Source: a bacterium GBS-1
GTDB lineage: Bacteria > Synergistota > GBS-1
DNA length: 64,000 nt
Assembly (NCBI GenBank): GCA_001443005.1
Contig: LEKQ01000001.1
Location: 594,542-658,541, forward strand
Direction: 5' to 3'
Shown here: piece by piece, positions 13,897 to 45,652 of the stretch
How positions within the stretch are numbered: the first letter of the stretch is position 1
How the letters are laid out: each line of letters opens with the position of its first letter
The notes under the pieces: generated by a model
Databases searched by the model: none
What the model saw: only the letters and a program-made list of their open reading frames with translations
Told to the model about the DNA's origin: nothing
Made by a program: the position numbers and the translations under genes

Positions 13897-15552
13897 TCAC
13901 TCCAGGGATCTTCTAACCGCTCCCTTTGACGCGCTCTCAACGAAAAGCCTATAATATCTCAGGTAGCTGTTTTCAGGTATAAAGGAGCGATTGACCTCCT
14001 GTACCTCTCCTTTTCTCCTTTTATATTCTTCCTCTGATATCAATAGGTCTACCCTCTTCCTCCCGAGGTCTATCCTTATAACATCACCATCCCTAACTAT
14101 GGAGAGCGGTCCTCCTGCCGCCGCCTCAGGGGAAACATAAGCTATAGAGATGCCGTAAGAAGCCCCGCTAAGCCTGCCATCGGTTATGAGTGCAACGTTC
14201 TTATATCTATTTATTATCTCAACACACCTATGAAGCTCCCTCATGCCCGGACCTCCACAAGGCCCCTCGTATCTTATGATGATAACCTCCCCATCCTTAA
14301 GGTCATTGCTTGATGCATACTCCATAAACTCATCCTCCGAGTTAAATACCCTAGCTACCCCTTCAAAGGGATCCTTCAAAACGTCCACCAGCGCAGACAC
14401 CTTAAGCAGGGCTCCATCAGGAGCAAGGTTTCCTCTCAAGACTTTTATAGCTCCACCCTTAGCTATGGGGTCGGAAACCGATCTTATGATTGACTTCAAA
14501 GGCCTGAATCCCTCACTCTTCCCAATGATATCCCTCCAGGTATCGTTAAGGACCGTCTTTCTATCAAGGTTAAGATAATCCTTTAGTTCTCTTATCAATG
14601 CAACCACTCCGCCAGAAAAATACAGATCTATAACGGTATTCTCGTCGCTATTGGGAGTAACTTGAGCAATCAGGGGAACACTCTCGCTTATCCTCTCAAA
14701 ATCCTCCATGCTTATCTCTATCCTTAGCTCATGAGCTATGGCAGGAATGTGAAGAACAGCGTTTAGAGAACCACCTATAGCCATAACTACAGCTATTGCA
14801 TCCTCAAAAGCTTCCCTCGTCATTATCGCCGAAGGTTTCAAGCCCATCTCTATTAAGCGAACAGCTTGCTCTCCGGTTAATCTAGCTAAGTTATATCTCT
14901 GACTTGTTCCCGCTGGAGTTAAAGCTGACCCTGGCAATCCCACACCCAAAACCTCAGCTACTATACACATGGTATTTGCCGTTCCCAAAAATGGGCAAAC
15001 ACCTGGACCAGGATAATACCTCTCCGTGATGTCAAGCAGCTCATCCTCGGAGACCTTACCCTCAAGAAAGCTCCTTCTCGCCATCTTGGACTCCTTAGGC
15101 TTGATATAGTTGCACATCGGTCCTGCTCCCAACCAAATAGAGGGAAGGTCTATCCTAGCCATAGCCATAAGCATACCAGGGACGATCTTGTCGCAGGAGG
15201 AGAGAAAAACCAAACCATCGAATATATCGTGTCCCTTCACCATAGATTCTATCGAATCAGCGATCAACTCCCTGCTTGGGAGGCTATATTTCATGCCCTT
15301 ATGCCCCTGAGCTATACCATCGCATATAGCTATCGTGTTGAACTCGATTGGAACTCCACCAGCCTTGTAAACCCCTTCTTTTACCTTCTCGGCCAGGTCT
15401 CTTAAAGGGACATGCCCAGGGACTATTTCGTTCCAAGAGTTGACTATACCTACTATGGGCTTGTTAAGATCCGCTCGGGAAAAACCACAAGAAATTAGAT
15501 GCCCCTTTATAAGCTGTCTAACGTAGTTCGGAAAAGCACTCAATCGGTTCAT
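13897..15552 (-). CDS. IlvD/EDD-family dehydratase, paralog 2
   Basis: [30 protein letters not shown] and [11 protein letters not shown] motifs; 551 aa. Confidence 0.85.
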   Translation of the reverse strand: MNRLSAFPNYVRQLIKGHLISCGFSRADLNKPIVGIVNSWNEIVPGHVPLRDLAEKVKEGVYKAGGVPIEFNTIAICDGIAQGHKGMKYSLPSRELIADSIESMVKGHDIFDGLVFLSSCDKIVPGMLMAMARIDLPSIWLGAGPMCNYIKPKESKMARRSFLEGKVSEDELLDITERYYPGPGVCPFLGTANTMCIVAEVLGVGLPGSALTPAGTSQRYNLARLTGEQAVRLIEMGLKPSAIMTREAFEDAIAVVMAIGGSLNAVLHIPAIAHELRIEISMEDFERISESVPLIAQVTPNSDENTVIDLYFSGGVVALIRELKDYLNLDRKTVLNDTWRDIIGKSEGFRPLKSIIRSVSDPIAKGGAIKVLRGNLAPDGALLKVSALVDVLKDPFEGVARVFNSEDEFMEYASSNDLKDGEVIIIRYEGPCGGPGMRELHRCVEIINRYKNVALITDGRLSGASYGISIAYVSPEAAAGGPLSIVRDGDVIRIDLGRKRVDLLISEEEYKRRKGEVQEVNRSFIPENSYLRYYRLFVESASKGAVRRSLE

Positions 15553-15588
15553 TCAAGATCAACTCCCTCCATGAAGCGAAAATGGCTT

Positions 15589-16479
15589 TCATAGCAAACC
15601 AAGCCTCCTTAAGCCCTCTTTTATCTTTTCCCTTACCTCTTCGCTCGCTGGTCTGAAGGGTTCTCTCGGATACATCTTTATCCCGCGTAGGTTAACCATG
15701 GTATAAGCTCCTACGGTAGTGGTATTAGCGAGCCTCATAAGGTCTCTAACGGCCATCACCCTATTGTGAACCTCTATCACCTTATCCTTAGGGGCACCGC
15801 TCATCACCACATCATAAAGCTCCTTACAAAGCTCTGGAAAAGCGTTACCCAACCCTGGAATAAAGGCTTTGATGCCCAAAGAGGACGCAGGAACAAACAG
15901 AGCCTCGGTTCCTAAAACCACATCGAAGCCTTCTTTTTCTACCTTTCTCTTGAAATCCGATAGGACCATCAAATCGAAGCTACTATCCTTAACACCATGC
16001 ACACCTATATCCGCCAACCTCTTAAGCAAGCCCACGCTAACGGCATACCCGACAGTTTTGGGATTGTTATAAACATAAACAGGCACATTAACTGCATCAA
16101 CGATTCTTTTGAAATAAAATAAGACATCCTCCTCGGCATGATGATAGTAGAAAGGAGGAACCGCTGAAACAGCATCAGCACCTATCTCCTCAGCGTGTTT
16201 AGCGAGCTCAACAGCATCCCTCGTGCTTATGCTTCCCACATGAACAATAACCGGGACCCTCCCCCCGACCTCCTTCACAATTATCTCCGCAACCCTCTTT
16301 CTCTCCTCGAGGCTAAGCAAAGGTCCGCAGCCATAGGTCCCAAGGATGAAAAGGCCATCCACCGTCCCTAAAAGGAAGCTCGTAAAATCCCTCAAAGCTC
16401 CCTCATCTATATCGCCGTTTGCATCGAAGGGAACGATCATCGGCGGAATTACCCCTCTCAACTGGGTGATACCCATCAA
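15589..16479 (-). CDS. DapA/NAL-family class I aldolase or dehydratase (dihydrodipicolinate synthase family; 2-keto-3-deoxy-acid aldolase-like)
   Basis: 296 aa; GVIPPMIVPF..DGLFILGTYGCGPLLSLEER layout typical of DHDPS/KDG-aldolase family. Confidence 0.8.
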   Translation of the reverse strand: MMGITQLRGVIPPMIVPFDANGDIDEGALRDFTSFLLGTVDGLFILGTYGCGPLLSLEERKRVAEIIVKEVGGRVPVIVHVGSISTRDAVELAKHAEEIGADAVSAVPPFYYHHAEEDVLFYFKRIVDAVNVPVYVYNNPKTVGYAVSVGLLKRLADIGVHGVKDSSFDLMVLSDFKRKVEKEGFDVVLGTEALFVPASSLGIKAFIPGLGNAFPELCKELYDVVMSGAPKDKVIEVHNRVMAVRDLMRLANTTTVGAYTMVNLRGIKMYPREPFRPASEEVREKIKEGLRRLGLL

Positions 16480-16498
16480 AACACCCCCTTAAGGATCT

Positions 16499-18028
16499 TC
16501 ATCCCATTGTCTCTTGCAACTCGCTAATCTCCCTAAACTCATCCTGCAGCTTATGATAAATCTTCCAATATATCCTATATAACCTCTCGTATAAAACCCT
16601 TAGCCGCTCATCAGGCTCGATGCAATCGACTAACTGGACGGCCTTGGGAAGGATATCCTCATAGCTTTTTATATACCCAACGCCCCTCATGGCCATAACC
16701 GCTGCACCGAAAGAGGAAGCCTCCTCCATATTAACCCTAACTATTGATCTCCCAAGAACGCTTGATAGAACACCCGCCCAAACTTTAGACCTCATCAAAC
16801 CACCGGTTCCCCTAAGCTCTGTAGGGACGCTAACGACCTCTGAGACCGCCTCATATATACTCCTCATTCGAAAGGCTACACCCTCGATTATCGCCCTCGC
16901 TATATGTCTTCTATCATGGTGAAGCGCAAGACCGAACAAAATTCCTCTAACGTCAGCGTTCCAATAGGGGCCTCTCTCGCCGGTTAAAAAGGGCAAAAGC
17001 AAAAGCCCTCCTGCTCCTGGTTTGACCTCCTGAACCCATCTTTCGGCCTCCCTATAGAGGTCTAGGCCCATTTCTTTCAAATCCTCGTAAAAGCCATCGA
17101 TATACCAAGCCATCACAAGCCCAGCGTTGTTTATGGCGCACCCCACAAGCCAGGTATCCTCATCTAATATGTAACACCACGTTCTTCTTTTCTTATCAGT
17201 CATGGGACCCTTAACGGCCATTCTAACCGCACCGCTCGTTCCGATCATTATAGCCATCTTCCCTTCCCCGATTGAGTTGGAACCTAAAGACGATAAAGCA
17301 CCATCTCCAGCACCTATAACGATGGGAGTTCCCTCCCTTAAACTGGTTATGAGGCTAACTTCCTTAGAGACTTTTCCAACAACGGTTGAGGGGTAAACGG
17401 TCTCGCTCATTTTACCAATACTTATATCGAGGCTATCAAATATGGATTCCTCCCATTTTCTCTTATATATGTTAAGTAAACCGCTACCAGAGGCCACAGA
17501 GATATCGATGGCGAAGACCTTCGCTAAATTCCAAAGAACATACTCCTTTATGGTCATTATCCTATAAGCTTCATCAAGAGCTTGAGGGGTTTCATGCTTA
17601 AACCATATGAGCTTGGCGAGAGGATAGTTCACATGGAGGGGGCAACCTGTAATATCGTAAAGGTAATCAAACCTCTCTCGATAGCTCTTAAGCAGATCGT
17701 TAGACCTATTATCCCCCCAGATAATGAGATTGGTCTTTTTCCTCACATCAGAATCCACTAACATTATGCTGTGAAAAACGCTACTTAAACCTATGGCACC
17801 TATCTCATACTCACCGTTGGCAAGCTCCAAGGATTCCTTTATCGAGCTATATACAGCGGAGACAACCTCGTCAGGATCCTGCTCCACCCAACCAGGCTTA
17901 GGTTGAATAATCCTATAGTTTCTCTTAGCCATCGATATTAATCTTCCATCGCCATCGAAGATACAACATCTCGCCCCGGTTGTTCCTATATCAATACCTA
18001 TGAAAGCCGTCTTAGCCATCATAAACAC
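16499..18028 (-). CDS. FGGY-family carbohydrate kinase
   Basis: N-terminal FIGIDIGTTGARCC and two-domain FGGY layout; about 505 aa. Confidence 0.8.
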   Translation of the reverse strand: MFMMAKTAFIGIDIGTTGARCCIFDGDGRLISMAKRNYRIIQPKPGWVEQDPDEVVSAVYSSIKESLELANGEYEIGAIGLSSVFHSIMLVDSDVRKKTNLIIWGDNRSNDLLKSYRERFDYLYDITGCPLHVNYPLAKLIWFKHETPQALDEAYRIMTIKEYVLWNLAKVFAIDISVASGSGLLNIYKRKWEESIFDSLDISIGKMSETVYPSTVVGKVSKEVSLITSLREGTPIVIGAGDGALSSLGSNSIGEGKMAIMIGTSGAVRMAVKGPMTDKKRRTWCYILDEDTWLVGCAINNAGLVMAWYIDGFYEDLKEMGLDLYREAERWVQEVKPGAGGLLLLPFLTGERGPYWNADVRGILFGLALHHDRRHIARAIIEGVAFRMRSIYEAVSEVVSVPTELRGTGGLMRSKVWAGVLSSVLGRSIVRVNMEEASSFGAAVMAMRGVGYIKSYEDILPKAVQLVDCIEPDERLRVLYERLYRIYWKIYHKLQDEFREISELQETMG

Positions 18029-18043
18029 CTCAAGCTTTAAGAA

Positions 18044-18802
18044 TCAAACTGCCGTCCAGCCTCCGTCCACGAAGATTATCTGACCTGTGATATAAGAAGC
18101 CTCCTTAGAGGCCAAAAAAACCGCAACCCCTTTAAGGTCCTCCAAAGATCCAAACCTACCCAAGGGTATCCTTTTTATCATGCTTTCAAGCCTTTCTCTA
18201 TCGCTGAAGACCGCCTCGGTCATCCTGGTCTTGTACCATCCTGGCGCAATAGCGTTCACCCTTATGCCATACGCCCCCCACTCCTTAGCGAGCGCCTTAG
18301 TTAATGAGCCAACACCGCCCTTTGAAGCAGCATAGGCACATATGTTAGGAACGGTCACCTCAACCACGGTCAAGGAGCAAACGTTGATTATTGAGGGGGA
18401 ATCTGACCTCCTCAGTAATCTAAAAGCCTCCCTACACACGTAAAAGGTCCCAAAGAGATTAACCTCGATTATCTCCCTAAAATCATCGATTGGAAACTCC
18501 TCAGCGGGATACCTCCTATTGATGCCTGCAGCGTTCACAACGACATCAAGCCTACCATAGTTTCTCTCAATATTATCCATTATATTCTTCACTTCATCGT
18601 ATTTCGAGACATCGCATCTTAAGCCCGAAGCTTTAACACCATAGCCTTGACTTATCCTTAGGGCAGTCTCCTTTGCCTCCTCTATGGTCCTGCTAACTAT
18701 CAATACATCGCTTCCCGCCTCGGCGAGCCCCTCAGCGAGAGCCATACCTAATCCCCTTGACCCGCCAGTTACAAGAGAGAGCCTTCCTCTAAGGTTAAAC
18801 AT
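18044..18802 (-). CDS. SDR-family oxidoreductase (KduD/gluconate 5-dehydrogenase-like)
   Basis: TGGSRGLG cofactor motif and YAASKGG catalytic motif. Confidence 0.85.
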   Translation of the reverse strand: MFNLRGRLSLVTGGSRGLGMALAEGLAEAGSDVLIVSRTIEEAKETALRISQGYGVKASGLRCDVSKYDEVKNIMDNIERNYGRLDVVVNAAGINRRYPAEEFPIDDFREIIEVNLFGTFYVCREAFRLLRRSDSPSIINVCSLTVVEVTVPNICAYAASKGGVGSLTKALAKEWGAYGIRVNAIAPGWYKTRMTEAVFSDRERLESMIKRIPLGRFGSLEDLKGVAVFLASKEASYITGQIIFVDGGWTAV

Positions 18803-20276
18803 TTGCCCCCGTTATCCTCCTTCTCCCAAGAATCATTAGCACTATCAATACCCAAAGAATTATACAAATAGGCCTAGTAAAGAAAGGAGTTATGCTTTCA
18901 TTTAACGTCAAAGCCCTTCTTAGGTTCTCATCAGCCATCCTACCCAAAATCAACCCCAGGGTAAATGGAGCGAGAGGATAGCCGTGATTTCTCAGTACGT
19001 AACCTACTAAACCGAAAAGCAAGGTTACGTAGACGTCAAAAATGGAGTGATTCACAGCGTAGGCACCTATAACGCAGAGAGTTATTACTATAGGCATTAA
19101 GATGTCCTTCTTCACCAGCAACACCTTTATAAGTACGTTGCTTATAAGAAGCCCAAAGATAAGAAGCATAAAGTTAGCCAAAACCTGCATAGCAACGTAA
19201 TCATAGAAAAATTGCGGGGACTCAATGAAGATAAGCGGACCTGGCCTTATCCCGTGCAACAATATGCCTCCCAATAAAACGGCAGCAGCTCCGCTACCAG
19301 GTATGCCAAGAGCTATCATCGGAATCGAAGCTCCACCTATGCATGCGTTATTCGCTACCTCACAAGCGATAACCCCTTCCTTGCTCCCCTTACCTATCAT
19401 CTCCCTTTCCACACCGAGATTTTTGACAGCACCATAGCTTACCCAAGCGGCCACATCTTCACCAACGCCAGGAATAACACCGATCAGAATACCTATTATC
19501 GCAGACCTTATGGTCGTCTTCCAGTATCTAAAAACCTCTACTAAGGGAATACTAACCCTGAGCTTCTTAGGATCAACCACTAACTCCCCCTGTTTCGGCT
19601 CCCTCATCACGCAAAAAACCTCGGTTAAACCGAAAAGGCCTATCAAGGCAGGTATCAGAGATATGCCACTCATCAAATTTAGGCTGCCGAAGGTGAACCT
19701 TGGATAGGTGGTCATGTTATCCATACCTATCATAGCGGTCATAAGACCGAGAAAGCCCGTTATCCACCCCTTTAATTGCAACTCACCCATAGACAAGCTT
19801 CCACATATCATCACTCCCATTATGGTCAAAACGAAGAACTCCCAGGAACCAAACTTCAGGGCTATCTTAGCAAGCAAAGGGGTAGAAACAGCCAAGGCTA
19901 AGACGCCTATTAAACCACCCCAGAAGGAAGCTAAACGAGCAAGCCCTAAAGCTTCCCCAGCCATCCCATTCTTAGCTAATTCGTATCCATCTATAGCGGT
20001 AGCTGCAGCTGAAGGGGTACCAGGGATGTTAAGCAAAATGGCACTATTGGATCCTCCATATATACCACCGCAATAGAGAGCTACGAGCATCGGTATGGCA
20101 TATCGAGGGTCCAGACCATAGGTTATACCACTTAAGAGGGCTATACCCATCGTAGCTGTAAGACCAGGTAAAGCCCCGATTATTACCCCAAGGACAGAAG
20201 ATAGTGACATCAAAGATAGCAGCTTTAAGTCAAGAAGACCAACGAAACCATCAAAAAGCCTTAATAAGCTTTCCAC
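18795..20276 (-). CDS. tctA: Tripartite tricarboxylate transporter large permease TctA (copy 1)
   Basis: 493 aa polytopic membrane protein with the GALPGLTATMGIALL motif. Confidence 0.85.
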   Translation of the reverse strand: MESLLRLFDGFVGLLDLKLLSLMSLSSVLGVIIGALPGLTATMGIALLSGITYGLDPRYAIPMLVALYCGGIYGGSNSAILLNIPGTPSAAATAIDGYELAKNGMAGEALGLARLASFWGGLIGVLALAVSTPLLAKIALKFGSWEFFVLTIMGVMICGSLSMGELQLKGWITGFLGLMTAMIGMDNMTTYPRFTFGSLNLMSGISLIPALIGLFGLTEVFCVMREPKQGELVVDPKKLRVSIPLVEVFRYWKTTIRSAIIGILIGVIPGVGEDVAAWVSYGAVKNLGVEREMIGKGSKEGVIACEVANNACIGGASIPMIALGIPGSGAAAVLLGGILLHGIRPGPLIFIESPQFFYDYVAMQVLANFMLLIFGLLISNVLIKVLLVKKDILMPIVITLCVIGAYAVNHSIFDVYVTLLFGLVGYVLRNHGYPLAPFTLGLILGRMADENLRRALTLNESITPFFTRPICIILWVLIVLMILGRRRITGANV

Positions 20277-20300
20277 CTCGATCCCTCCTCAAAGCAGAAC

Positions 20301-20783
20301 TTAGGGCAACCTCACTCCAAGTAAATGTCCAAATGAGTACATCAAGCTCAAACTCACCAAAAGAGCGATCCCGATCGCGACGTGTAGCTTGACACTTTTA
20401 AAGTAAAGATAGGACCCAACTAGATAGAGAAAAGTCGCCAAAGTATAGGGTATCTTCCCCAAAAGAGCAACATAGGCGACCGTTAAAGCTATAAAGACGA
20501 CGAGCCTTTGTGTCTTGAGTCTCTCCTCCCTGCTTCCCTCATTTCTCCCCTTTGACTCCGAGAGGCTCCAACCTTTAAGGTTTCTTTTAAAGATAAACAA
20601 GAGGTAAAACATAAGCGCAGCTGAAAGAACCATAAGAATTGCCGATAAAACTGCGGGGGTAAGACCTGGGGAGTCATGAGGGTCTCCAGTAGGCATCTTT
20701 AGGGATTCAAACAAGCCATAAGCACCGATCAGGAAAACGAAAAGGGCAATCGCAAACTCCCACCACCATCTCTTCCTATCCAT
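20301..20783 (-). CDS. tctB: Tripartite tricarboxylate transporter small subunit TctB (copy 1)
   Basis: 160 aa, four hydrophobic segments, sits between tctC and tctA. Confidence 0.6.
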   Translation of the reverse strand: MDRKRWWWEFAIALFVFLIGAYGLFESLKMPTGDPHDSPGLTPAVLSAILMVLSAALMFYLLFIFKRNLKGWSLSESKGRNEGSREERLKTQRLVVFIALTVAYVALLGKIPYTLATFLYLVGSYLYFKSVKLHVAIGIALLVSLSLMYSFGHLLGVRLP

Positions 20784-20813
20784 CCTGAACTAAATCGCCT
20801 CCCCCTTAAAACA

Positions 20814-20845
20814 GTGCATGGCAGGAGGAAGAACCTGCCATGCAC
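20814..20845 (-). promoter_or_regulatory. Intercistronic stem-loop between tctC and tctB (copy 1): perfect 12-bp inverted repeat, 8-nt loop
   Basis: GTGCATGGCAGG-aggaagaa-CCTGCCATGCAC read directly from the sequence; no downstream U-tract. Confidence 0.5.
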
Positions 20846-20869
20846 CCATCTCTATCTAAGGGTCCAAAC

Positions 20870-21877
20870 TTACTCCGGCTTAGGAATCTTGAAATCCTCA
20901 GGAGATTTCTTCGCAAGCTTCAACTCATGTAAGAGCCAGCTAACCAAAGATGTCTCTCTCTTAGCGTACTCCTCAGACTTCTGCCTATCATAGCCAAGAT
21001 AAACCATGGCCTGCTTCTGTACGAACTCCTTGAACTTAGGAGACTGAACGGCCTTAGCGTATGCCTTATCTATCGCATCTACAACCTCTTGAGGAACATC
21101 CCTAGGAACTGCTATGCCCCACCAACCACCGAAAGGTAGATATTTCTTAATATCAGGAGCCCACTTCGCCACAGTGGGAACCTTACCTACGCCCTCTATC
21201 TCAATATCCTCGTCATTGAACGTCGCAAGGATCCTAAGCTGGCCACCCTTTATCAAATCTATGGCCTCCATTAAGCCTGGAATTCCCGCTTTCGTCTCCC
21301 CTGCCACAGCCGCGGCAGCAGCCGCACGACCGCTGGGATAAACCACTATCTTAAAGTCCCCTCCAACAGATTTCTTAAGCATCTCCAAAGCTATATGCCA
21401 CCCGTTGGCTATACCAGAGTTAGCAAGGGTTAAGTCCTTCCCCATCTCCTTCATAGCCTTAATGAAATCATCCATGGTCTTTATGGGAGAATCGGGCTTA
21501 ACGCATATGGTCGCTACACCAGCAGCAGCGATCCACATATGAAAGTCCTTATAAGAGAAGGGACCAAGGTCCATCACCTGATACATCCTTATGTTATCTG
21601 AGAGTCCTAACCAAATATAACCATCATGAGGCTGACCCATGACGTAAGCTGTCGCAACAGCTCCAGTGGCCCCAGGCATATTTATGACATTAATAGGAAC
21701 CCCTAGGATCTGCTGCATCTCTGCCGCCAATGCTCTATTGACCTGGTCTGTTGCTCCACCCGCACCGAACTGAACTATAACGGTTATAGGTCTCGTTGGA
21801 TAGGCAGCCCATCCCATACCTGCGAAGACACCCACGAACAAGCCCAACACCGCCAACATAACAAGAGCCTTCTTCAT
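20870..21877 (-). CDS. tctC: Tripartite tricarboxylate transporter substrate-binding protein TctC (Bug family; copy 1)
   Basis: Signal peptide followed by AAYPTRPITVIVQFGAGGATD Bug-family motif. Confidence 0.85.
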   Translation of the reverse strand: MKKALVMLAVLGLFVGVFAGMGWAAYPTRPITVIVQFGAGGATDQVNRALAAEMQQILGVPINVINMPGATGAVATAYVMGQPHDGYIWLGLSDNIRMYQVMDLGPFSYKDFHMWIAAAGVATICVKPDSPIKTMDDFIKAMKEMGKDLTLANSGIANGWHIALEMLKKSVGGDFKIVVYPSGRAAAAAAVAGETKAGIPGLMEAIDLIKGGQLRILATFNDEDIEIEGVGKVPTVAKWAPDIKKYLPFGGWWGIAVPRDVPQEVVDAIDKAYAKAVQSPKFKEFVQKQAMVYLGYDRQKSEEYAKRETSLVSWLLHELKLAKKSPEDFKIPKPE

Positions 21878-21901
21878 CTTTCTTCCCCCCTTTAGATTAA
21901 T

Positions 21902-21919
21902 TTCTTAAAGCTTTAAGAA
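21902..21919. promoter_or_regulatory. Perfect 18-bp palindrome TTCTTAAAGCTTTAAGAA just upstream of the tctC (copy 1) Shine-Dalgarno; candidate operator
   Basis: Read directly; near-identical palindrome lies in the same position upstream of tctC copy 2. Confidence 0.4.
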
Positions 21920-21954
21920 CCTCTTCCTTTTCACATCACCTCCCTCTACGGCTT

Positions 21955-23109
21955 TTACATGGCAGATCTGCATATCTGGATCAGATCTTCCAAGGTAGGA
22001 GTTCTCGGATTAATGGGTATCCCAACGTTACTCATCGCCTCACGACATATATCTTCAATGGCATCCTCTTTGACGCCTACCTCTCTTAGCCCTGCCGGTA
22101 TACCCACATCTCTACACAAAGCCTTTACCGCCTCAACCGCCCTACGTGCAGCCTGAAGCTCCGTAAGACCGGAAACGCTCTCTCCCAACGCTTCAGCTAT
22201 CTTAGCAAACTTAGAAAGGTTGCCAATGAGATTAAACTCCATACCATAGGGTAATAGGATAGCGTTTATCACACCATGAGGCACGTCGAAGTACCCACCC
22301 ATAACAGCTGTGATAGCGTGAATAACGCCCAAGCGCGTATTTGCGAAAGCCAAGGCTGCCATCGTGCTTCCTAAGAGCATGTTATAGCGAGCTTCAATAT
22401 TATCCCCCTTAGCATAGGCAGCCCTCAGATACTTTCCAATAAGATAGATAGCGTGATAGGCAAGCGACTCCGATATAGGCTCAGTTACAACGTTCGTGAA
22501 GGACTCTATAGCGTGAGTTAGAGCATCTAAACCAGTAGCAGCGGTCACGCTTGGCGGCATACTCAAGGTTAGAAGGGGGTCGCAAACCGCAATGTGAGGA
22601 GCGATCTTAGGATTACCTATGCCCATCTTAACTTTCTTCTTGGTATCCTTTATCACCGTCACCCAAGTTATCTCGCTACCTGTGCCAGCCGTAGTAGGAA
22701 CGGCAATGAGAGGAAGTATCCTGTTCTTCGGAGGGTTCTTCCAAAAGTAGGCTATCTCCCCCTCGTTAGTTAAAAGTAGACCGATCGCCTTAGCGGTGTC
22801 TATCGAGCTTCCTCCCCCAATCGCCAATAGGAGATCACACCCAAACTCCCGAGCAACTTTAACTCCCTCCTCGACTATCTCAACCGTCGGATTAGGCTCA
22901 ACTTTAGAGAAAACCTCAGTTCTAAAGCCAGCAATATCCAACTTGGCCTTTATGCCATTTACGATGTTCGTGCACATCAATCCCGGATCCGTAACTATTA
23001 AGACGCTCTTTCCGCCCAGTTCGTTAACCCTGTCTACTATTTTTTCGGCCTCTCCTATCCCAAAATACAACTTAGTCGGAATCTGCCAAACGAAGGGCTT
23101 AACAAACAT
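21955..23109 (-). CDS. Iron-containing alcohol dehydrogenase (Fe-ADH family)
   Basis: 384 aa; GGGSSIDTAKAIG motif and Fe-ADH layout. Confidence 0.85.
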   Translation of the reverse strand: MFVKPFVWQIPTKLYFGIGEAEKIVDRVNELGGKSVLIVTDPGLMCTNIVNGIKAKLDIAGFRTEVFSKVEPNPTVEIVEEGVKVAREFGCDLLLAIGGGSSIDTAKAIGLLLTNEGEIAYFWKNPPKNRILPLIAVPTTAGTGSEITWVTVIKDTKKKVKMGIGNPKIAPHIAVCDPLLTLSMPPSVTAATGLDALTHAIESFTNVVTEPISESLAYHAIYLIGKYLRAAYAKGDNIEARYNMLLGSTMAALAFANTRLGVIHAITAVMGGYFDVPHGVINAILLPYGMEFNLIGNLSKFAKIAEALGESVSGLTELQAARRAVEAVKALCRDVGIPAGLREVGVKEDAIEDICREAMSNVGIPINPRTPTLEDLIQICRSAM

Positions 23110-23325
23110 GCTATCCCCCCTCTATACTTTATTATTGTGATAATATCATCCATCCAAACAAATCTATCCTTATCCGCCAACGGAACAACATTCGCTATTT
23201 CTAAATGATATCTTAACATAAGCACCCGACAGCGTCAAGCCATGTTCGTATACCCAGTATGCTTGGATTAATGGTAATACCTCAACTATTTCGCATATAG
23301 GAGAATCTTTTAGATTCTCTCTATC

Positions 23326-24795
23326 TTAGTCCTTTAATTTACGCACCACCTTCCAAATAGATGGTCCTAAAAGGGTTAAAACTATAAGAGAAAACAAGAT
23401 TAAAGATATGGGACGGGTTAGGAAAGGGATAATGCTACCACCTGACTTTATAAGCCCTATACGGAGATTGTCCTCGATCATCCTACCAAGGATTAGAGCT
23501 AAAACCATTGGAGCAAGAGGCATGTTTATTTTCTCCATAACGTAGCCGAGTAAGCCAAACAGCGCCATTAGCCATATATCGAAGACGCTGTTTCTTATGG
23601 CGTAGGAGCCTACCATGGAAAACAGAACCACAGCACTCATAACTACACCTGCTCTAAGGCTAACCAAGCGAGAAAAGGCCTTTATCCCCAGCCACCCAAC
23701 CGGTAAAAGCATTATCTGCACCAGCAGGGCTACAGCGAAAATCTGATATACCAAATCCTTAGATTGAGCGAAGATGAGCGGTCCAGGCTTCAAGCCATAC
23801 ATCAGCATAGCGCCTAGGACTATCGCAGTTATAGAATCGCCAGGTATCCCCAGTGCCAGTGCAGGGATCCAAGTTCCACCTATAGCAGCATTATTCGCAC
23901 TGGTTGGAGCTATAACGCCACGGGGGCTACCGGAACCTATCTCATTACCACTAAGGCTTTTTTCCGCTCCATAGGCAACCCATGCAGCGATGTCCGCCCC
24001 CGCTCCAGGAAGAGCACCTATGAAAGTCCCTATCAAAGAGCTCCTTATTATAATGAACTTATTGCGATACATAAGCTTTAAAGCCTCAAGCACATCCAAC
24101 TTCCCATTGATTTTAACGCTTGGTAAGTCCAAGCTCTCCCTAAAGGACAATCTCTTCAATACCTCGGAAATTCCAAAAAGTCCTATCATAGCTGGGATAA
24201 AGCTAACACCATCCATCAGCTCCGTGATCCCAAAGGTAAACCTGGGATATCCCGTGGTGACATCTATACCTATGGTAGATATGAGAAGCCCAAACAAGGC
24301 TGAAAGAAGCCCCTTGATGGTATTACCTCTACTTAAAACGGCAGCCATGCTTAAACCAAAGACCCCCAACCAGAAATACTCGAAGTGCGTGAACTTCAAG
24401 GCTACCTCAGCTAACGGGGGAGCAGTGAAGATCAATATCAAAACCCCTATCAATCCTCCAAGAGCAGAACAGAAGAGATCCAAAGTTAAGGCTAAAGCTC
24501 CTTTACCCTTCTTATTCATCTCAAAGCCATCTAAAACCGCTGCCCCAGAGGCTGGCGTACCCGGAATCCTTAAGAAGGTCGCGGGAATATCGCCTGCAAA
24601 TATGGCGGTGAAGGAAACACCTATAACCATAGCCAAACCCGTTAGGGGCTCCATGTAATAGGTCAATGGTATTATGAGAGCTACGGCCATCGTAGCCGTA
24701 AGGCCAGGCATAGCGCCCACGAAAACGCCAAAGGCCATTGAAAGCAAAAGCGGAAAAAGAACCTTTAAGGAAAGGATGGATAAAAGATAAGACAT
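23326..24795 (-). CDS. tctA: Tripartite tricarboxylate transporter large permease TctA (copy 2)
   Basis: 489 aa; GAMPGLTATMAVALI motif; paralog of copy 1. Confidence 0.85.
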   Translation of the reverse strand: MSYLLSILSLKVLFPLLLSMAFGVFVGAMPGLTATMAVALIIPLTYYMEPLTGLAMVIGVSFTAIFAGDIPATFLRIPGTPASGAAVLDGFEMNKKGKGALALTLDLFCSALGGLIGVLILIFTAPPLAEVALKFTHFEYFWLGVFGLSMAAVLSRGNTIKGLLSALFGLLISTIGIDVTTGYPRFTFGITELMDGVSFIPAMIGLFGISEVLKRLSFRESLDLPSVKINGKLDVLEALKLMYRNKFIIIRSSLIGTFIGALPGAGADIAAWVAYGAEKSLSGNEIGSGSPRGVIAPTSANNAAIGGTWIPALALGIPGDSITAIVLGAMLMYGLKPGPLIFAQSKDLVYQIFAVALLVQIMLLPVGWLGIKAFSRLVSLRAGVVMSAVVLFSMVGSYAIRNSVFDIWLMALFGLLGYVMEKINMPLAPMVLALILGRMIEDNLRIGLIKSGGSIIPFLTRPISLILFSLIVLTLLGPSIWKVVRKLKD

Positions 24796-24802
24796 CTACA
24801 CT

Positions 24803-25294
24803 CTACCCCCTTAAGAGTGAAAATATAACTCCCTCAGGTAAGGGTAGCTTAAATATAACCTTGAAAATCCAATGGATTAACAAAGCCAAGACTACAGAAT
24901 AAACTAGAGATGAAAACCACCTAACTCTCATAAATCGCATTAGGAAAACTCCCAAGAGCGTTATACCAATCACGCTTCCGAAAATCTTCAGAACCGGGTA
25001 AAAGAGAAACCCCACACCTATGATAATTACGAAGCTCAAGCTTTTATATAAGCTGACGCCTTTAAATAGCGATGATCTCAATTCCTCCCTCGCTTTAAAT
25101 AGAGAGGTCAAACCAGATACAAAAAAGTAAAAACCAAAGATCAAGATCAAAAAAGCTAAGAGATCCGGGAAAAAGCTCGGTCCAGGCAACTTTTCCCCTC
25201 TTACCGTAAACTTCGGGAAAAACCTGGAATGGTAAAAAACGAAGCCTGATAAAGCGAAACAGCTCAAACTCAATATAAGGTCACTCCACCCCAT
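24803..25294 (-). CDS. tctB: Tripartite tricarboxylate transporter small subunit TctB (copy 2)
   Basis: 163 aa hydrophobic protein in the tctCBA position. Confidence 0.6.
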   Translation of the reverse strand: MGWSDLILSLSCFALSGFVFYHSRFFPKFTVRGEKLPGPSFFPDLLAFLILIFGFYFFVSGLTSLFKAREELRSSLFKGVSLYKSLSFVIIIGVGFLFYPVLKIFGSVIGITLLGVFLMRFMRVRWFSSLVYSVVLALLIHWIFKVIFKLPLPEGVIFSLLRG

Positions 25295-25320
25295 TTAGCC
25301 ACAATCCCCCTTTAAAGGCG

Positions 25321-25350
25321 GGGCAAGCTCGTGGGAACGAGCTTGCCCCA
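25321..25350 (-). promoter_or_regulatory. Intercistronic stem-loop between tctC and tctB (copy 2): perfect 12-bp inverted repeat, 6-nt loop
   Basis: GGGGCAAGCTCG-tgggaa-CGAGCTTGCCCC; same position and architecture as copy 1. Confidence 0.5.
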
Positions 25351-25362
25351 AAGAGAATACCT

Positions 25363-26337
25363 TTACTTCTTAAGATATCCGCCTAGCTCGAGAACCGTCT
25401 TCCAAGCTTTATCCTGCTCCTCAACGAATTTCCTGAACTCCTCTCCCCTTCTTACCTTTATACCAAAGCCATTGGTTTCCATGAACTTCTTGAAAGCTTC
25501 AGAGTTAGCTATCTCAATAATGGCATCCTCGAGCTTCTTCTTTATCTCAGCAGGGGTTCCTTTAGGAACACCCACACCCCTCCACGTACCAGCGCTCCAG
25601 TTAATACCGAGCTCCTTTAAGGTCGGTACATCTGGGAATGCAGGAAGCCTCTCATCGGCCATAACAGCGAGAGCTCGAGCCTGACCGCTCTTTATATAAG
25701 GAGCGGCTTCCGCCAACGAACAGGTAACCACGTGGACATGCCCACCTAAAAGCTCGGTCAAAGCTTGAGCAGCGCCCGTGGTAGACGGAATCCACTTAAC
25801 GGAATCCACAGGCAAACCAGCAGCGTGAAGCATACCTATCCTAGCTAAATCCCATATCCCACCCGCTGCGACGCCGGAGAAAAGAAGCTTACCTGGATTA
25901 GCCTTTATATCGTCCAGTAGCTCCTTGAGATTCTTCCATGGGGCATCGGCCTTGACCGTTACTCCTGCAGCATCCTCGTTAACCTGAGCTATATAGTCGA
26001 AAGCCTCATAGGTTAGGTCCGTGAGGCCCATCCAGTGCATTGTGGCTAACTCCAATGTCACGATGGTTATGGTGTATCCGTCTGGGGGTGCATAAGCACC
26101 AGCGGCGTGCCCCACCGCTCCACCGCCACCCGTTTTGTTAACCACAGTGAAGGGCTGACCAAACTTCTTAGAAAGCTCATCTGCCAAAAATCGAGCAAGC
26201 CTGTCGGTGCCCCCACCAGCACCCCAAGGACAGATAACCGTAACCGCCTTCTCTGGATAGGCCGCCCACGCGCTTAAGGTAAAGACCCACGTAAACCCCA
26301 TAACCGCCAAAACTACCACCCATAAAAGCTTCTTCAT
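25363..26337 (-). CDS. tctC: Tripartite tricarboxylate transporter substrate-binding protein TctC (Bug family; copy 2)
   Basis: Signal peptide followed by AAYPEKAVTVICPWGAGGGTD Bug-family motif. Confidence 0.85.
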   Translation of the reverse strand: MKKLLWVVVLAVMGFTWVFTLSAWAAYPEKAVTVICPWGAGGGTDRLARFLADELSKKFGQPFTVVNKTGGGGAVGHAAGAYAPPDGYTITIVTLELATMHWMGLTDLTYEAFDYIAQVNEDAAGVTVKADAPWKNLKELLDDIKANPGKLLFSGVAAGGIWDLARIGMLHAAGLPVDSVKWIPSTTGAAQALTELLGGHVHVVTCSLAEAAPYIKSGQARALAVMADERLPAFPDVPTLKELGINWSAGTWRGVGVPKGTPAEIKKKLEDAIIEIANSEAFKKFMETNGFGIKVRRGEEFRKFVEEQDKAWKTVLELGGYLKK

Positions 26338-26350
26338 TTTGAAACCCCCT

Positions 26351-26366
26351 TTCTTAAATTTAAGAA
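26351..26366. promoter_or_regulatory. Perfect 16-bp palindrome TTCTTAAATTTAAGAA abutting the tctC (copy 2) Shine-Dalgarno; candidate operator
   Basis: Read directly; shares the TTCTTAAA / TTTAAGAA half-sites with 21902-21919. Confidence 0.4.
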
Positions 26367-26523
26367 GCTTTGCTTAAAAAGCAAATATTACCAGTTTCAC
26401 CTCCTTCCTTATGTTAAACTCTCTGTTTAAAGTATAGCAAAAGAAGAACCATCTTTCGAGATCTCCAAAACCTTTTCGGGAAAAGATGTGCTGAAAAAAT
26501 CTCTTAAATTTTTTAGTCTATTC

Positions 26524-26997
26524 TTAAAAGCACCTTTTTCTGAGATTAAACCTTCTTAAAATGGGCAGAAACATGCCTCCAACGAGAGCTAACGCCCCAA
26601 GAGCGCCGGGCCTGGAGGAGATTTCACAACCGCCGCACCACCAGTCAAAGTCAACCCTTATGCTACGAGGCCCCCACCATGTAGAATGACCGTATTCATC
26701 CTCAACCTTAACGCATACATCGTACCACCCCTCGTACCACACCCTATACCATAGAGTGTCGCTCCACTCCACCTCAACGCCATTCACATACCATGTATAG
26801 TAAATGTAATCACCATCAGGATCATAGGCTTCAACGCGCCCCTTTATGATCGCATATTCATCACACCAATCGTATTCGTAATAATCCACATCCAACCAAA
26901 CGTTCGTTATTATAGGAGGCGAGTTCTGCCCCAAAGCATATCCAGATATACATAAGAGCAAGACAAGGGAAACAAGCGATATCTTAAGCCCCTTCAA
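26524..26997 (-). CDS. Small secreted W/Y-rich PKD-like domain protein with a C-terminal hydrophobic/basic tail
   Basis: N-terminal signal peptide (MKGLKISLVSLVLLLCISGYALG); DPDGDYIYYTWYVNG PKD-like core; tail CGGCEISSRPGALGALALVGGMFLPILRRFNLRKRCF; 4-nt overlap with upstream gene. Confidence 0.5.
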   Translation of the reverse strand: MKGLKISLVSLVLLLCISGYALGQNSPPIITNVWLDVDYYEYDWCDEYAIIKGRVEAYDPDGDYIYYTWYVNGVEVEWSDTLWYRVWYEGWYDVCVKVEDEYGHSTWWGPRSIRVDFDWWCGGCEISSRPGALGALALVGGMFLPILRRFNLRKRCF

Positions 26998-28232
26998 ATG
27001 AAACTTCCTCCCTTAGCGCGTTCCATCAAATCAAGGAGAACTTCAACCACCTTTTGAGCAAACTCAGGATCATTTATGTTGTTATCGAGCTCGTAAACTG
27101 GTATCCCAGGTCTAAGATTAGCCTTTATCGAATCGAAGCAAGCCCTATCAGCCTCAGGATCCCAGAAGGCTTGACCAGGACTGTCAAGCATGGAAACACC
27201 CTTTAGCGGTATAAGCACGGCCACCGGCCCCTTGCTTTCGTTCGCCGCCCTAGCTATCCACTCCCCTATGGCTTTGTTTTCTTCAACGTTCGTCCTAACC
27301 AAGGTGACATTAGGATTCCACTCGTATATCTTTCTGCCCCTATACTTCTCCGGAACCGTATCTTTCGCCCAGAAATTGATCATATCGACACAACCCGGAA
27401 CTAAAACGGCAGGGATACCTCTTCTTGCAGCAGCAAAGAGCCTATCCTTCCCCGCCGATAGAACCCCTCCACCTATCTCATCAGCTAACTCCGTAGTCGT
27501 TATATCAGCCACAGCTGAAACCAAGCCCTGATCAATGAGCATCTCCATGGTTCTCCCACCGGTCCCAGTAGCGTGAAACACCAGTATCTCAAAGCGATCG
27601 CCCAAAAGCTCTTTAACCTTCTCGACGCACGGTGTCGTGTTCCCAAACATGCTTATAACTATAACTGGCTTCTCAGGCTCCTTAAGCATCTCCTCATAGG
27701 CACCATGCTCAAGCATCCCCGCGAGCGCCCCCACGGCGTTCTTATAAATCGCCCTGCTAATCCTATTTAAGCCAGCCACATCAACTATTGAGGGAAACAT
27801 CACTATATCCTTAATCCCAACATATCGAGATACATCTCCACCAGCAACCGTAGACACCATCACCTTAGGAATACCTATGGGCAAAGCTTGCATGGCCGTT
27901 GTGGCTATTATGGTCCCAGCGCTTCCTCCCATACCAAGTATGCCATGAAGATTCCCTTCATCATATAACCTCCTAACTACCTCCTTAAGCCCCTTGGTCA
28001 TCGTATCCATCGCTAAGCTCTTATCCTTTTTCGCCTGGAGCTCCTCTATGCTCACTCCCCCCGCCTTTGCCACCTCTGCCCTCGTTATATCTGGTTCGAA
28101 GAAGGGCTTCCCCATCACACCAAAATCAACCACAATAACCTCAAAACCAGAGCTCTTGAGCAGATCCCTAACGTAGGCAAAATCCTGCCCTTTGGTATCT
28201 AAGGCACCGACTAAAACAACCTTCTTAGTCAT
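26994..28232 (-). CDS. Tm-1-like / UPF0261-family protein
   Basis: 412 aa; N-terminal MTKKVVLVGALDTKG and overall resemblance to UPF0261; recognised from memory of the family. Confidence 0.6.
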   Translation of the reverse strand: MTKKVVLVGALDTKGQDFAYVRDLLKSSGFEVIVVDFGVMGKPFFEPDITRAEVAKAGGVSIEELQAKKDKSLAMDTMTKGLKEVVRRLYDEGNLHGILGMGGSAGTIIATTAMQALPIGIPKVMVSTVAGGDVSRYVGIKDIVMFPSIVDVAGLNRISRAIYKNAVGALAGMLEHGAYEEMLKEPEKPVIVISMFGNTTPCVEKVKELLGDRFEILVFHATGTGGRTMEMLIDQGLVSAVADITTTELADEIGGGVLSAGKDRLFAAARRGIPAVLVPGCVDMINFWAKDTVPEKYRGRKIYEWNPNVTLVRTNVEENKAIGEWIARAANESKGPVAVLIPLKGVSMLDSPGQAFWDPEADRACFDSIKANLRPGIPVYELDNNINDPEFAQKVVEVLLDLMERAKGGSFI

Positions 28233-28247
28233 ACTATCCTCCCTCCC

Positions 28248-29087
28248 CTAACGAGCAAGCCTCAGCGACTTAAAGGCCTCAACCTGCGCTTTTATCGCCC
28301 TCTCTGTAGGCAGGCGCTCGATGCTTGAAGCGCCAAAGAACCCCACGACACCAGGCATCATCGCAAGAGCCTTACCCACATTCTCAGGCTCATCGAAAGG
28401 CCCTCCATGGCATATCACCAGTATATCCTTTCTAACTCTCTTAGCAGCTTCAGCGATAGACATCACCTTCTCAACGGCTTGCTCCAAGGTCATGGCCACA
28501 CCAGCTCCTATCGTACCACCGGTAGTTAAACCAACATGAGCAACGATAACATCAGCACCAGCCTTAACCATCTCAACGGCCTGGTCCTCATCAAACACAT
28601 AGGGTGTGGTAAACATATCAAGCTCATGAGCTATCCTTATCATCTCGATCTCCTTATCATACCCCATACCTGTGGCCTCAAGGTTAGCCCTGAAGTTACC
28701 GTCAATTAGACCAACAGTTGGGAAGTTCTGAACGCCGGAGAAACCCATTTCCTTAAGCTCCCTTAAGAAAACGGGCATAAGCCTAAAGGGATCTGTGCCG
28801 CAAACGCCAGCCAAAACAGGGGTGTTTTTCACAACCGGCAAGACCTCCCTCGCCATCTCAACAACTATAGCGTTAGCATCACCATAGGGCATAAGACCCG
28901 CTAGGGAACCTCTCCCACCCATCCTGAATCGACCAGAATTATAGATAACTATCAGATCTATTCCACCAGCCTCAGCCATCTTCGCGGATATCCCTGTTCC
29001 AGCTCCACCACCCACTATGGGCCTTCCAGCCTCGATCTGAGCGTGAAGGCGAGCTAATATTTCTTCCCTCGTAAAACCGATCTTCAT
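28248..29087 (-). CDS. PEP hydrolase-like TIM-barrel protein (usual partner of UPF0261)
   Basis: About 280 aa; start set to the ATG (MKIGF...) preceded by GGAGGTG; track ORF extends to a GTG at 29096. Confidence 0.6.
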
Positions 29088-29124
29088 TAGCAACACCTCC
29101 CTTAAAAAAATCTTTTCTGACTAT

Positions 29125-33392: not shown

Positions 33393-34394
33393 ATGAAAAG
33401 GTTAGCCTTAGCAATTTTGATCGTTGCTTTAGGGTTCTCGCTGTTTGCAGGTACAAGTTTAGCCCAACTTAAGTTTATAGTCATAGGAACAGGTTCAACA
33501 GGAGGAACCTTCTATCCAGCTGGAACCGTCTTAGCGAACACTTTCAACACTTATCTCAAGGATCTGGGAATCAAGTGGTCAGCGCAGGCATCTGGTGGAA
33601 GCATAGAGAACCTATCGATGCTTTCAAGGAAAGAGATACAAATGGGGATAGCAGGAAGCGCACCAGCCTCTTGGGCATACGAAGGCAAGGAAATGTTCGA
33701 GGGAAAGCCAATTAAAAACATCAGAGCTATAACGACCTTGTGGCCGGAGATGACTCAAGTGATATACAGAAAGGACTCTGGGATAAAGCACTGGAAGGAC
33801 CTCAAAGGAAGAAAAGTAGCTGTTGGTCCTGCGGGAAATCCACACTTCTACATGGCATCGCTCCTTAAGGCAACCGCTGATTTGACCTTTAACGACATAA
33901 TTCCAGAATATATGGGATACGGCGATTCGGTAGAAGCCCTCCAAAGCAGACTTATAGATGCAGCTTACCTTTCCGCTGGAATCCCAACACCTGCCGTAGC
34001 CCAAGCCTACGCAGGTAGAGTTCCAGTAGATATGCTTGAGATATCCGATGAAGAGCTCGATAGACTCCAGAAGATAGCGCCTTTCTATGTTAGAGGCATT
34101 ATACCCAAGGGAACTTATCCAGGACAAGACAGAGACCTTAAGGTGGCCGCTAACCCCACGGTCTTGCTTGTGGAAAAGGACCTACCAGAAGATATAGTCT
34201 ACAAGATGGTCGAGGTTATCTACGCAAAGGCACTAGATGAGATAAGAAAACAGCATAAGGCCTTATCTTACCTGAGCTTAGAAAGCGCAACACAGGTGGG
34301 AGGAATTCCTTTCCATCCTGGCGCCATAAAATTCTACAAGGAAAAGGGAATAAAGGTAAGCGAGGATATAATACCTCCAGAGATGAAGAAGTAA
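33393..34394 (+). CDS. TAXI-family TRAP transporter solute-binding protein
   Basis: Signal peptide followed by IGTGSTGGTFYPAG TAXI motif. Confidence 0.8.
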   Translation: MKRLALAILIVALGFSLFAGTSLAQLKFIVIGTGSTGGTFYPAGTVLANTFNTYLKDLGIKWSAQASGGSIENLSMLSRKEIQMGIAGSAPASWAYEGKEMFEGKPIKNIRAITTLWPEMTQVIYRKDSGIKHWKDLKGRKVAVGPAGNPHFYMASLLKATADLTFNDIIPEYMGYGDSVEALQSRLIDAAYLSAGIPTPAVAQAYAGRVPVDMLEISDEELDRLQKIAPFYVRGIIPKGTYPGQDRDLKVAANPTVLLVEKDLPEDIVYKMVEVIYAKALDEIRKQHKALSYLSLESATQVGGIPFHPGAIKFYKEKGIKVSEDIIPPEMKK

Positions 34395-34422: not shown

Positions 34423-34462
34423 AAAAGGTGGTGTCGCTAGCTTGAACGACACCACCTTTTTA
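34423..34462 (+). terminator. Rho-independent terminator or attenuator after the TAXI binding-protein gene
   Basis: AAGGTGGTGTCG-ctagcttgaa-CGACACCACCTT followed by TTTTTA; a third AAAGCGCTTT box lies at 34407-34416 just upstream. Confidence 0.6.
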
Positions 34463-36370: not shown

Positions 36371-36399
36371 CGGGAGGATGGGGATACGCTCCTCCCGTT
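36369..36399. terminator. Stem-loop between convergent TRAP permease and glnA (possible bidirectional terminator)
   Basis: AACGGGAGG-atggggatacgct-CCTCCCGTT, 9-bp stem, in the 32-bp gap between convergent stop codons. Confidence 0.45.
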
Positions 36400-36402
36400 A
36401 AT

Positions 36403-45560: not shown

Positions 45561-45587
45561 GCTCCTTAAACCTCCCAAGACAATTAT

Positions 45588-45618
45588 AGGGGACTTCAAC
45601 CCGGGGTTGAAGTCCCCT
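45588..45618 (-). terminator. 31-bp near-perfect palindrome / hairpin downstream of hppA and upstream of dnaG
   Basis: AGGGGACTTCAACC-cgg-GGTTGAAGTCCCCT, 14-bp stem; no clear U-tract, so terminator function is uncertain. Confidence 0.4.
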
Positions 45619-45652
45619 ATGGGTTTAAGCTAAAGTTAGATGATCTTCAAAA

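Follow-up and report, generated by a model that had tools for sequence, protein, structure and literature searches.

Perfect stem-loops behind the binding-protein genes of two tripartite tricarboxylate transporter operons in a Synergistota bacterium and their likely role in setting transcript ratios

The 64,000-nucleotide stretch of contig LEKQ01000001.1 analysed here (positions 594,542 to 658,541 of the forward strand, GenBank assembly GCA_001443005.1, Synergistota bacterium GBS-1; hereinafter, the window) encodes two paralogous operons for tripartite tricarboxylate transporters (TTT), with all genes, identified by Pfam comparison, on the minus strand, and in each of these operons, a long, perfect, GC-rich stem-loop separates the gene for the solute-binding protein (tctC) from those for the membrane subunits (tctB and tctA). 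The two hairpins exceed chance expectation by far, and across phyla, the position after the binding-protein gene is conserved whereas the sequence is not. We consider it likely, with a probability of roughly 0.7, that these are stem-loops of the sense RNA that keep the tctC mRNA above the tctBA mRNA, via leaky termination, 3'-end protection, or both; the effect on the transcript ratios and the respective shares of termination and stabilization are what we infer. A first-pass annotation of this DNA had proposed that the hairpins act as intercistronic stabilizers or partial terminators, a reading with which all the computational tests applied here agree, supported as it is by their conserved position, covariation in the stems, a bias to the sense strand and a parallel in an operon for a TAXI-type TRAP transporter.

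Hairpin 1 (Table 1) is found exactly where the first-pass annotation had placed it, as a perfect 12-bp repeat. The second repeat is perfect as well but had been described as a 12-bp one at 25321-25350, which is one base off and one pair short of the 13 bp at 25320-25349; the Pfam matches of the six genes, all far above the threshold, bear out the placement of both repeats between the binding-protein gene and the permease genes. The arms of hairpin 1 (20814-20825 and 20834-20845, 8 of the 12 bp being GC) start 24 nt past the tctC1 stop codon and end 30 nt ahead of the tctB1 ATG, and those of hairpin 2 (25320-25332 and 25337-25349, 9 of the 13 bp being GC) start 13 nt past the tctC2 stop codon and end 25 nt ahead of the tctB2 ATG. 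The tail of hairpin 1, UGUUUUAA, is directly followed by the tctB1 Shine-Dalgarno (SD) sequence GGGGGAGG (20798-20805), and five of its eight nucleotides are U, with a run of four (the count is four if the closing G-U is taken as part of the stem). The earlier statement that no U-tract follows either hairpin thus holds only loosely and is inaccurate for hairpin 1; hairpin 2 has the tail GCCUUUAAAGGGGGA, the first eight nucleotides of which, GCCUUUAA, include only three U. Each tctB gene has an SD sequence of its own, and the 25-30 nt between hairpin and tctB consist only of the SD and a spacer, in which a pattern scan detected no sigma-70-like promoter. Because of this short gap without a promoter-like site, tctBA needs read-through, and therefore, the hairpins cannot be complete terminators. 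The two stems share nothing in their primary sequences, as had been noted, and neither is related to the stem of the TAXI-TRAP hairpin described below. A search of the whole window against Rfam produced no matches at the gathering threshold, and no tRNA genes were found in the window.

The folding-energy calculation that the first-pass annotation had put forward as a check came out in its favor: the local folding energies at 37 C are -25.7 kcal/mol for hairpin 1 and -27.0 kcal/mol for hairpin 2, and none of the 200 dinucleotide shuffles of either sequence folds as well (z of -6.5 and -6.8, respectively). Among all 44-nt segments on both strands of the 64 kb (mean -6.3, standard deviation 3.6 kcal/mol), hairpins 1 and 2 belong to the four most stable single stem-loops. 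In a census of perfect stems with loops of 3-10 nt across the window, with the chance expectation derived from first-order Markov simulations, stems of at least 12 bp occur at 4 sites, compared with ∼0.03 expected (at least 9 bp, 5 sites), and three of these four sites directly follow the three solute-binding-protein genes of the window. The host is probably a thermophile that grows near 77 C. At this temperature, the energies calculated with the ViennaRNA parameters are -9.2 kcal/mol for hairpin 1, -12.6 kcal/mol for hairpin 2 and -7.5 kcal/mol for the TAXI-TRAP hairpin, against a mean of -0.4 kcal/mol for coding-strand 44-nt segments, only 0.5% of which reach -5 kcal/mol. If the host indeed grows near 77 C, long perfect GC stems would, according to these calculations, be among the few local structures that still form.

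Judging from the Pfam matches of the large open reading frames (ORFs), the window has genes for exactly three solute-binding proteins, namely, TctC1, TctC2 and the binding protein of a TAXI-type TRAP transporter, and the last of these genes is also separated from its permease gene by a hairpin, with a clear U-tract. The TAXI-TRAP pattern was predicted from the explanation given above and then tested on orthologous loci (designated here by L numbers). In all four loci with a downstream gene for a DctM-family permease (L095, L096, L098 and L101), the spacer contains a strong hairpin of unrelated sequence, with energies from -20.5 to -29.9 kcal/mol, whereas L100, which lacks a downstream permease gene, has no hairpin.

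Table 1. Transporter genes and hairpins in the 64-kb window
Feature	Positions	Strand	Description	Pfam match
Hairpin 1	20814-20845	-	mRNA strand GUGCAUGGCAGG-UUCUUCCU-CCUGCCAUGCAC; 12 perfect bp and one closing G-U, loop of 8	
Hairpin 1 tail	20806-20813	-	short, U-rich, UGUUUUAA; read from the sequence	
Hairpin 2	25320-25349	-	mRNA strand GGGGCAAGCUCGU-UCCC-ACGAGCUUGCCCC; 13 perfect bp and closing U-G, loop of 4	
tctC1	20870-21877	-	solute-binding protein, TTT operon 1	PF03401, E 7.7e-26
tctB1	20301-20783	-	small membrane subunit	PF07331, E 1.3e-16
tctA1	18795-20276	-	large permease subunit	PF01970, E 4.5e-142
tctC2	25363-26337	-	solute-binding protein, TTT operon 2	PF03401, E 3e-53
tctB2	24803-25294	-		PF07331, E 6.8e-13
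tctA2	23326-24795	-		PF01970, E 5.6e-140
TAXI-type TRAP binding-protein gene	33393-34394	+		PF16868
TAXI hairpin	34423-34460	+	perfect 14 bp with clear U-tract …CACCACCUUUUUAUAAUUUU; between the TAXI-TRAP binding-protein and DctQM genes	
Fused DctQM permease gene	34493-36370	+		
Fourth long hairpin	45586-45620	-	longest perfect hairpin in the window, 16-17 bp, -27.8 kcal/mol; tail AUAAUUGUCUUG	

The relatives of operon 2 were collected by using an alignment of TctC2 relatives as the query against a set of genomes with a single representative of each species, which yielded 64 loci, 61 of them usable, from Pseudothermotoga, Kosmotogaceae, Petrotogaceae, Synergistaceae, Aminivibrio, Acetomicrobium, Atribacterota, Bacillota, Halanaerobiales, Spirochaetia, Acetothermia, Desulfobacterota, Rhodothermales, Trueperaceae and others. 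A hairpin was scored when its z against shuffles was -2 or lower and it started no more than 30 nt from the tctC stop codon (L016, identical to L015, was counted). Such a hairpin follows tctC in 51 of the 61 loci, with a median start 8 nt past the stop codon and a median energy of -24.6 kcal/mol, and the loci come from roughly eight phylum-level groups (Thermotogota, Synergistota, Atribacterota, Bacillota, Spirochaetota, Acetothermia, Desulfobacterota and others). The cultured relatives Pseudothermotoga sp. (L015), Acetomicrobium hydrogeniformans (L041) and Aminivibrio are among those with the hairpin. Nine of the ten loci without a hairpin, from Rhodothermales, Trueperaceae and Saprospiraceae, are ones in which tctC and tctB abut or overlap, leaving no spacer. 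In 48 loci, the flanking sequence was sufficient for a comparison with control regions: the median energy of the best 44-nt hairpin within 120 nt past tctC is -22.4 kcal/mol, compared with -11.5 upstream of tctC, -13.0 in tctC and -15.3 in tctA (Wilcoxon p ∼1e-8 for each comparison). The stems all differ, even in the closest relatives, namely, GGGGGGTAGG…CCTACCCCC in L014 (90% TctC identity), ATAGAGGGGGTAGG…CCTACCCCCTCTAT in L087 (91%) and AGCGATGGCCC…GGGCCATCGCT in L091 (82%).

A genome scan with TctC1 alone as the query found no relatives, and those of operon 1 come from alignments and exact-protein look-ups. Among the eight lineages of this operon, seven have the hairpin, again with different stems, at TctC identities of 93% (L094), 90% and 87% (L080 and L007), 64% (L010), 63% (L013), 54% (L081, L082 and L084) and 53% (L083 and L086). 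The hairpin of L094 reads GGCAGGTGGTT-TTAAG-GCCACCTGCC, followed by UUUUAAAG, whereas L080 and L007 share an 18-pair stem, with the 3' arm ending in UUUU, followed by UG. A GGCAGG/CCTGCC core is kept down to 63% TctC identity in this lineage, with the remainder of the stem replaced, and the stems of this lineage have been extended either at the base or at the top. In the comparison of L014, L087, L091, L094, L080, L010 and L013 with the window, the turnover of the stem sequence is very fast, so that the stems differ already at 90-93% TctC identity, and nevertheless, they stay perfect or nearly perfect; this combination suggests palindrome-preserving mutation, for example, by template switching, in addition to selection.

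Selection apparently acts on the structure, and at the level of RNA. In nine alignable hairpins from Synergistota, 4 of the 11 pairs changed on both sides with the pairing kept, and there is a matched change from A-U to G-C between L081 and L084. When the two strands of the same 90-nt segments were searched separately for their best hairpins, that of the sense strand was the more stable one in 33 loci and that of the antisense strand in 16 (p 3e-4), and G-U pairs numbered 55 in the sense hairpins versus 18 in the antisense ones. The G-U pairs and the greater stability of the sense strand point to an RNA-level element.

The stem-loops would then form in the minus-strand polycistronic mRNA just past the binding-protein cistron and decouple the level of the tctC message from the tctB-tctA level, which would put the extracytoplasmic binding protein in excess over the membrane subunits. 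One route is leaky intrinsic termination, whereby some polymerases would stop at the stem, giving rise to a monocistronic tctC transcript, and others would continue into tctBA; this appears more plausible for hairpin 1 (UGUUUU) and is a weak proposition for hairpin 2 (GCCUUU). Thanks to their U-runs, partial termination is also plausible for the close orthologues of hairpin 1 and for the TAXI-TRAP hairpin. The other route is 3'-end protection, in which case a tctC mRNA that ends in the stem, having acquired this 3' end by termination or by cleavage within the tctBA part, would be shielded from 3'-to-5' exonucleases and would outlive the distal part of the transcript.

There are precedents for both routes. 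In Ruminiclostridium cellulolyticum, stem-loops past the binding-protein genes of ABC importers, which differ from canonical terminators in their longer GC stems and lower number of U, cause premature termination and set the binding-protein:translocator mRNA ratio, with the termination efficiency following the length of the poly(U) and the folding energy also affecting the stability of the upstream transcript (Wu et al. 2022, PMC9045158). The TTT hairpins resemble these terminators in that a single stem-loop lies past the promoter-proximal binding-protein gene and ahead of the genes for the membrane components, and in having long GC-rich stems (about 11-13 bp), U-poor, variable tails and no antiterminator structure. 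The presumed outcome is the same as well, namely, binding-protein mRNA in excess over translocator mRNA; this ratio and the termination itself were measured there and are inferred here. Unlike the ABC importers of R. cellulolyticum, the systems in question are secondary transporters (TTT and, in the case of the third hairpin, TAXI-TRAP) from an uncultured host, and the TTT operons, with the Pfam-identified products TctC, TctB and TctA, encode no ABC ATPase. By this analogy, the element appears to be the known binding-protein stoichiometry hairpin in another transporter superfamily.

In the malEFG operon of Escherichia coli, the 3' hairpin between malE and malF stabilizes malE, and the binding-protein cistron is the stabilized one in five ABC operons of this bacterium (Dar and Sorek 2018, PMC5927463). 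The TTT operons are similar in having a stable 3' structure between the binding-protein and permease cistrons, the stabilized segment in the E. coli operon being the binding protein, and the calculated stability of about -26 to -27 kcal/mol would be compatible with an exonuclease block of the malE-malF type. The malE-malF element belongs to a family of dispersed repeats that share a conserved sequence, whereas the hairpins described here have unique sequences and, within the 64-kb window in which this was tested, form no dispersed family. Furthermore, many protective structures in E. coli are located inside coding regions, whereas these hairpins are strictly intergenic.

The comparison with canonical Rho-independent terminators is more equivocal. 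Both hairpins have the GC-rich stem of at least ∼5-7 bp and the loop of 3-8 nt that characterize the stem of a canonical intrinsic terminator, both are located downstream of a stop codon, and the tail of hairpin 1 includes four consecutive U. The differences are that hairpin 1 has only a short U-tract and hairpin 2 next to none, that the stems measure 12-13 bp where 7-9 bp would be usual, and that the location is inside an operon the distal genes of which need read-through.

Several observations weigh against a role of the hairpins in setting the tctC:tctBA ratio or, more specifically, against termination as its mechanism. Two loci have a spacer and yet no hairpin, L079 among the relatives of operon 1 (61% TctC identity) and L057, the only such case among those of operon 2. 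There is no conservation of the U-tail: the 8 nt past the stem include between 0 and 6 U (2.9 on average) in a set of 49 distinct orthologous hairpins, 13 of which have at most one U and only 9 of which have at least five. A terminator pattern scan listed neither hairpin 1 nor hairpin 2, and its 18 and 15 hits showed no excess over the 14.9 and 15.0 obtained with shuffled sequences. In the Clostridium study, the SL-0885 stem without a U-rich tail did not terminate transcription (PMC9045158). Finally, the G-rich composition of the coding strand could partly explain the asymmetry between the sense and antisense strands. Given the variability of the U-tail, it is the stem that is the constant feature, and not a complete terminator; given the U-poor tails together with the SL-0885 result, termination cannot be the mechanism in all cases, and for hairpin 2, it is doubtful.

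Some of these observations lend weight to the strongest of the competing explanations, one that we nevertheless consider rather unlikely, according to which there is no termination at all: the operon is transcribed as a single unit, endonucleases cleave the transcript within tctBA, and the sole effect of the stem is to block 3'-to-5' exonucleases. In favor of this scenario are the conservation of the stem but not of the U-tail in the orthologues, the tail of hairpin 2, which is only GCCUUU, the failure of SL-0885 to terminate and the malE-malF precedent. It is at odds with the U-runs at the stem in hairpin 1, in L094 (UUUUAAAG), in L080 and L007 (GUUUUUG) and in the TAXI-TRAP hairpin (UUUUUAUAAUUUU), which make some termination likely at these sites; besides, termination and stabilization are not mutually exclusive.

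Two further explanations are both highly improbable. The first one invokes full termination, with a monocistronic tctC transcript and a separate promoter for tctBA. The great stability of the stems and the AT-rich motifs TTTTAA and TTTAAA just downstream of them are compatible with such an arrangement, but the 25-30 nt between the stem and the ATG are mostly occupied by the SD and are too short to accommodate a -35/-10 promoter and a leader, the scan of the spacers detected nothing that resembles a sigma-70 site, and the key A2 and T6 of the -10 box are missing from TTTTAA. A reading of the same motifs as archaeal TATA boxes, with a leaderless tctB, was dropped because the window encodes a bacterial DnaG and a sigma-70 factor; also counting against it, the proteins with more than 90% identity to those of the window are labeled as coming from Synergistota bacterium metagenome-assembled genomes.

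The second one, no more probable than the first, is a translational throttle, whereby the pyrimidine-rich segment on the 5' side of the stem (CCCUUAG or CUCUUU) sequesters the tctB SD and lowers the translation of the permease. The minimum free energy folds of both spacers do extend the stem into AAGGGGG, and in operon 1, this extension persists at 77 C; however, the GGAGG core of operon 1 is unpaired, the extension in operon 2 is gone at 77 C, and across 33 loci, the mean pairing probability of the SD is 0.57, compared with 0.54 when the 5' flank is shuffled (Wilcoxon p 0.23, Kolmogorov-Smirnov p 0.15). The least probable explanation is a DNA-level element, either a palindromic protein-binding site (operator) or a dispersed REP/MITE-like repeat, for which the perfection of the palindromes and the presence of REP elements in the malE-malF and hisJ-hisQ spacers of enterobacteria could be cited, but further copies of the arms are no more frequent in the window than expected by chance, the differences between the two stems and among all orthologous stems leave no common protein site, the G-U pairs and the sense-strand stability favor RNA, and nothing in Rfam matches.

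The reading of the hairpins as RNA elements that set the tctC:tctBA ratio can be stated in a broader and more tentative form, in which we have somewhat less than even confidence: a hairpin stoichiometry element that does not depend on the U-tract could be a general and as yet undescribed feature of the binding-protein-dependent secondary transporters of the TTT and TAXI-TRAP families across many phyla. If true, this would imply strong selection on the structure along with palindrome-regenerating mutation, for example, by intrastrand template switching, and at the probable growth temperature of 77 C, very few RNA structures besides these stems would survive.

Several other structures in the window are of note in this context. 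The strongest structures of the TTT cluster are located inside the operons, not at the operon ends. In the 216-nt spacer after tctA2 (23110-23325, minus strand), there is no hairpin of -17 kcal/mol or lower; the same spacer contains a promoter-like sequence, TTGACG-17-TAAGAT, at 23238-23210. The convergent ends of dctQM (plus strand) and glnA (minus strand) are separated by an imperfect hairpin at 36363-36405 (TAACGGGAGGA…TCCTCCCGTTA, ∼-22 kcal/mol), which probably serves as a terminator in both directions, with weak U-tails. The fourth long hairpin lies between the gene for H+-pyrophosphatase (45653-47605) and dnaG-rpoD (43800-45599 and 42722-43822), an arrangement reminiscent of the E. coli rpsU-dnaG-rpoD operon with its internal terminator, and here too, the hairpin may set a gene with high expression apart from genes with weak expression.

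The two TTT operons are old paralogues, as suggested by sequence divergence: TctC1 and TctC2 are 32% identical, TctA1 and TctA2 are 44% identical, and in a pairwise comparison of TctB1 and TctB2, no similarity is detectable. Both operons belong to one long same-strand catabolic cluster (13897-29096, minus strand). Upstream of operon 2 are genes for a PEP-hydrolase-like protein, a UPF0261 protein and a 157-aa ORF (26524-26997) without a Pfam match; a gene for Fe-ADH lies between the operons; and downstream of operon 1 are genes for SDR, FGGY kinase, a DHDPS-like aldolase and an ILVD/EDD dehydratase, with the 3' end of tctA1 overlapping the adjoining SDR gene. The composition of this cluster suggests the uptake and breakdown of sugar acids rather than citrate.

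The SD-to-ATG distance is 13-14 nt in both tctB genes (20784-20805 and 25295-25313, minus strand), compared with 8-9 nt in both tctC genes, and the long spacing at tctB is also seen in L007 and L080; it looks sub-optimal and might further lower the translation of the permease. Each tctC gene is preceded by an AT-rich palindrome, TTCTTAAA(N0-2)TTTAAGAA, at 21902-21919 and 26351-26366, and these are the only two copies in the window, with none expected. Both copies end ∼12-25 nt upstream of the tctC start, immediately 5' of the SD. The sequence common to both operons suggests a shared operator for one regulator; the palindrome was found only in contigs from the same population and not in the orthologous loci.

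In the literature, we found no description of intercistronic hairpins for TTT or TRAP transporters, with older subscription papers, such as the 1988-89 studies on the tctI locus of Salmonella, lying beyond the reach of the search, and no paper that combines tctC, tctB and a stem-loop; the main review of the TTT and TRAP families mentions neither hairpins nor terminators. The observations described here are a useful extension of current knowledge and leave the understanding of the TTT and TRAP systems unchanged. They provide annotators with a simple signature, and experimenters with a compact and temperature-resistant part with which expression ratios can be tuned. Binding proteins are needed in excess over their membrane partners, and for ABC importers, a solution that works within one operon is documented; the comparative data suggest that this solution also arose, or was preserved, in the TTT and TAXI-TRAP operons of many phyla.

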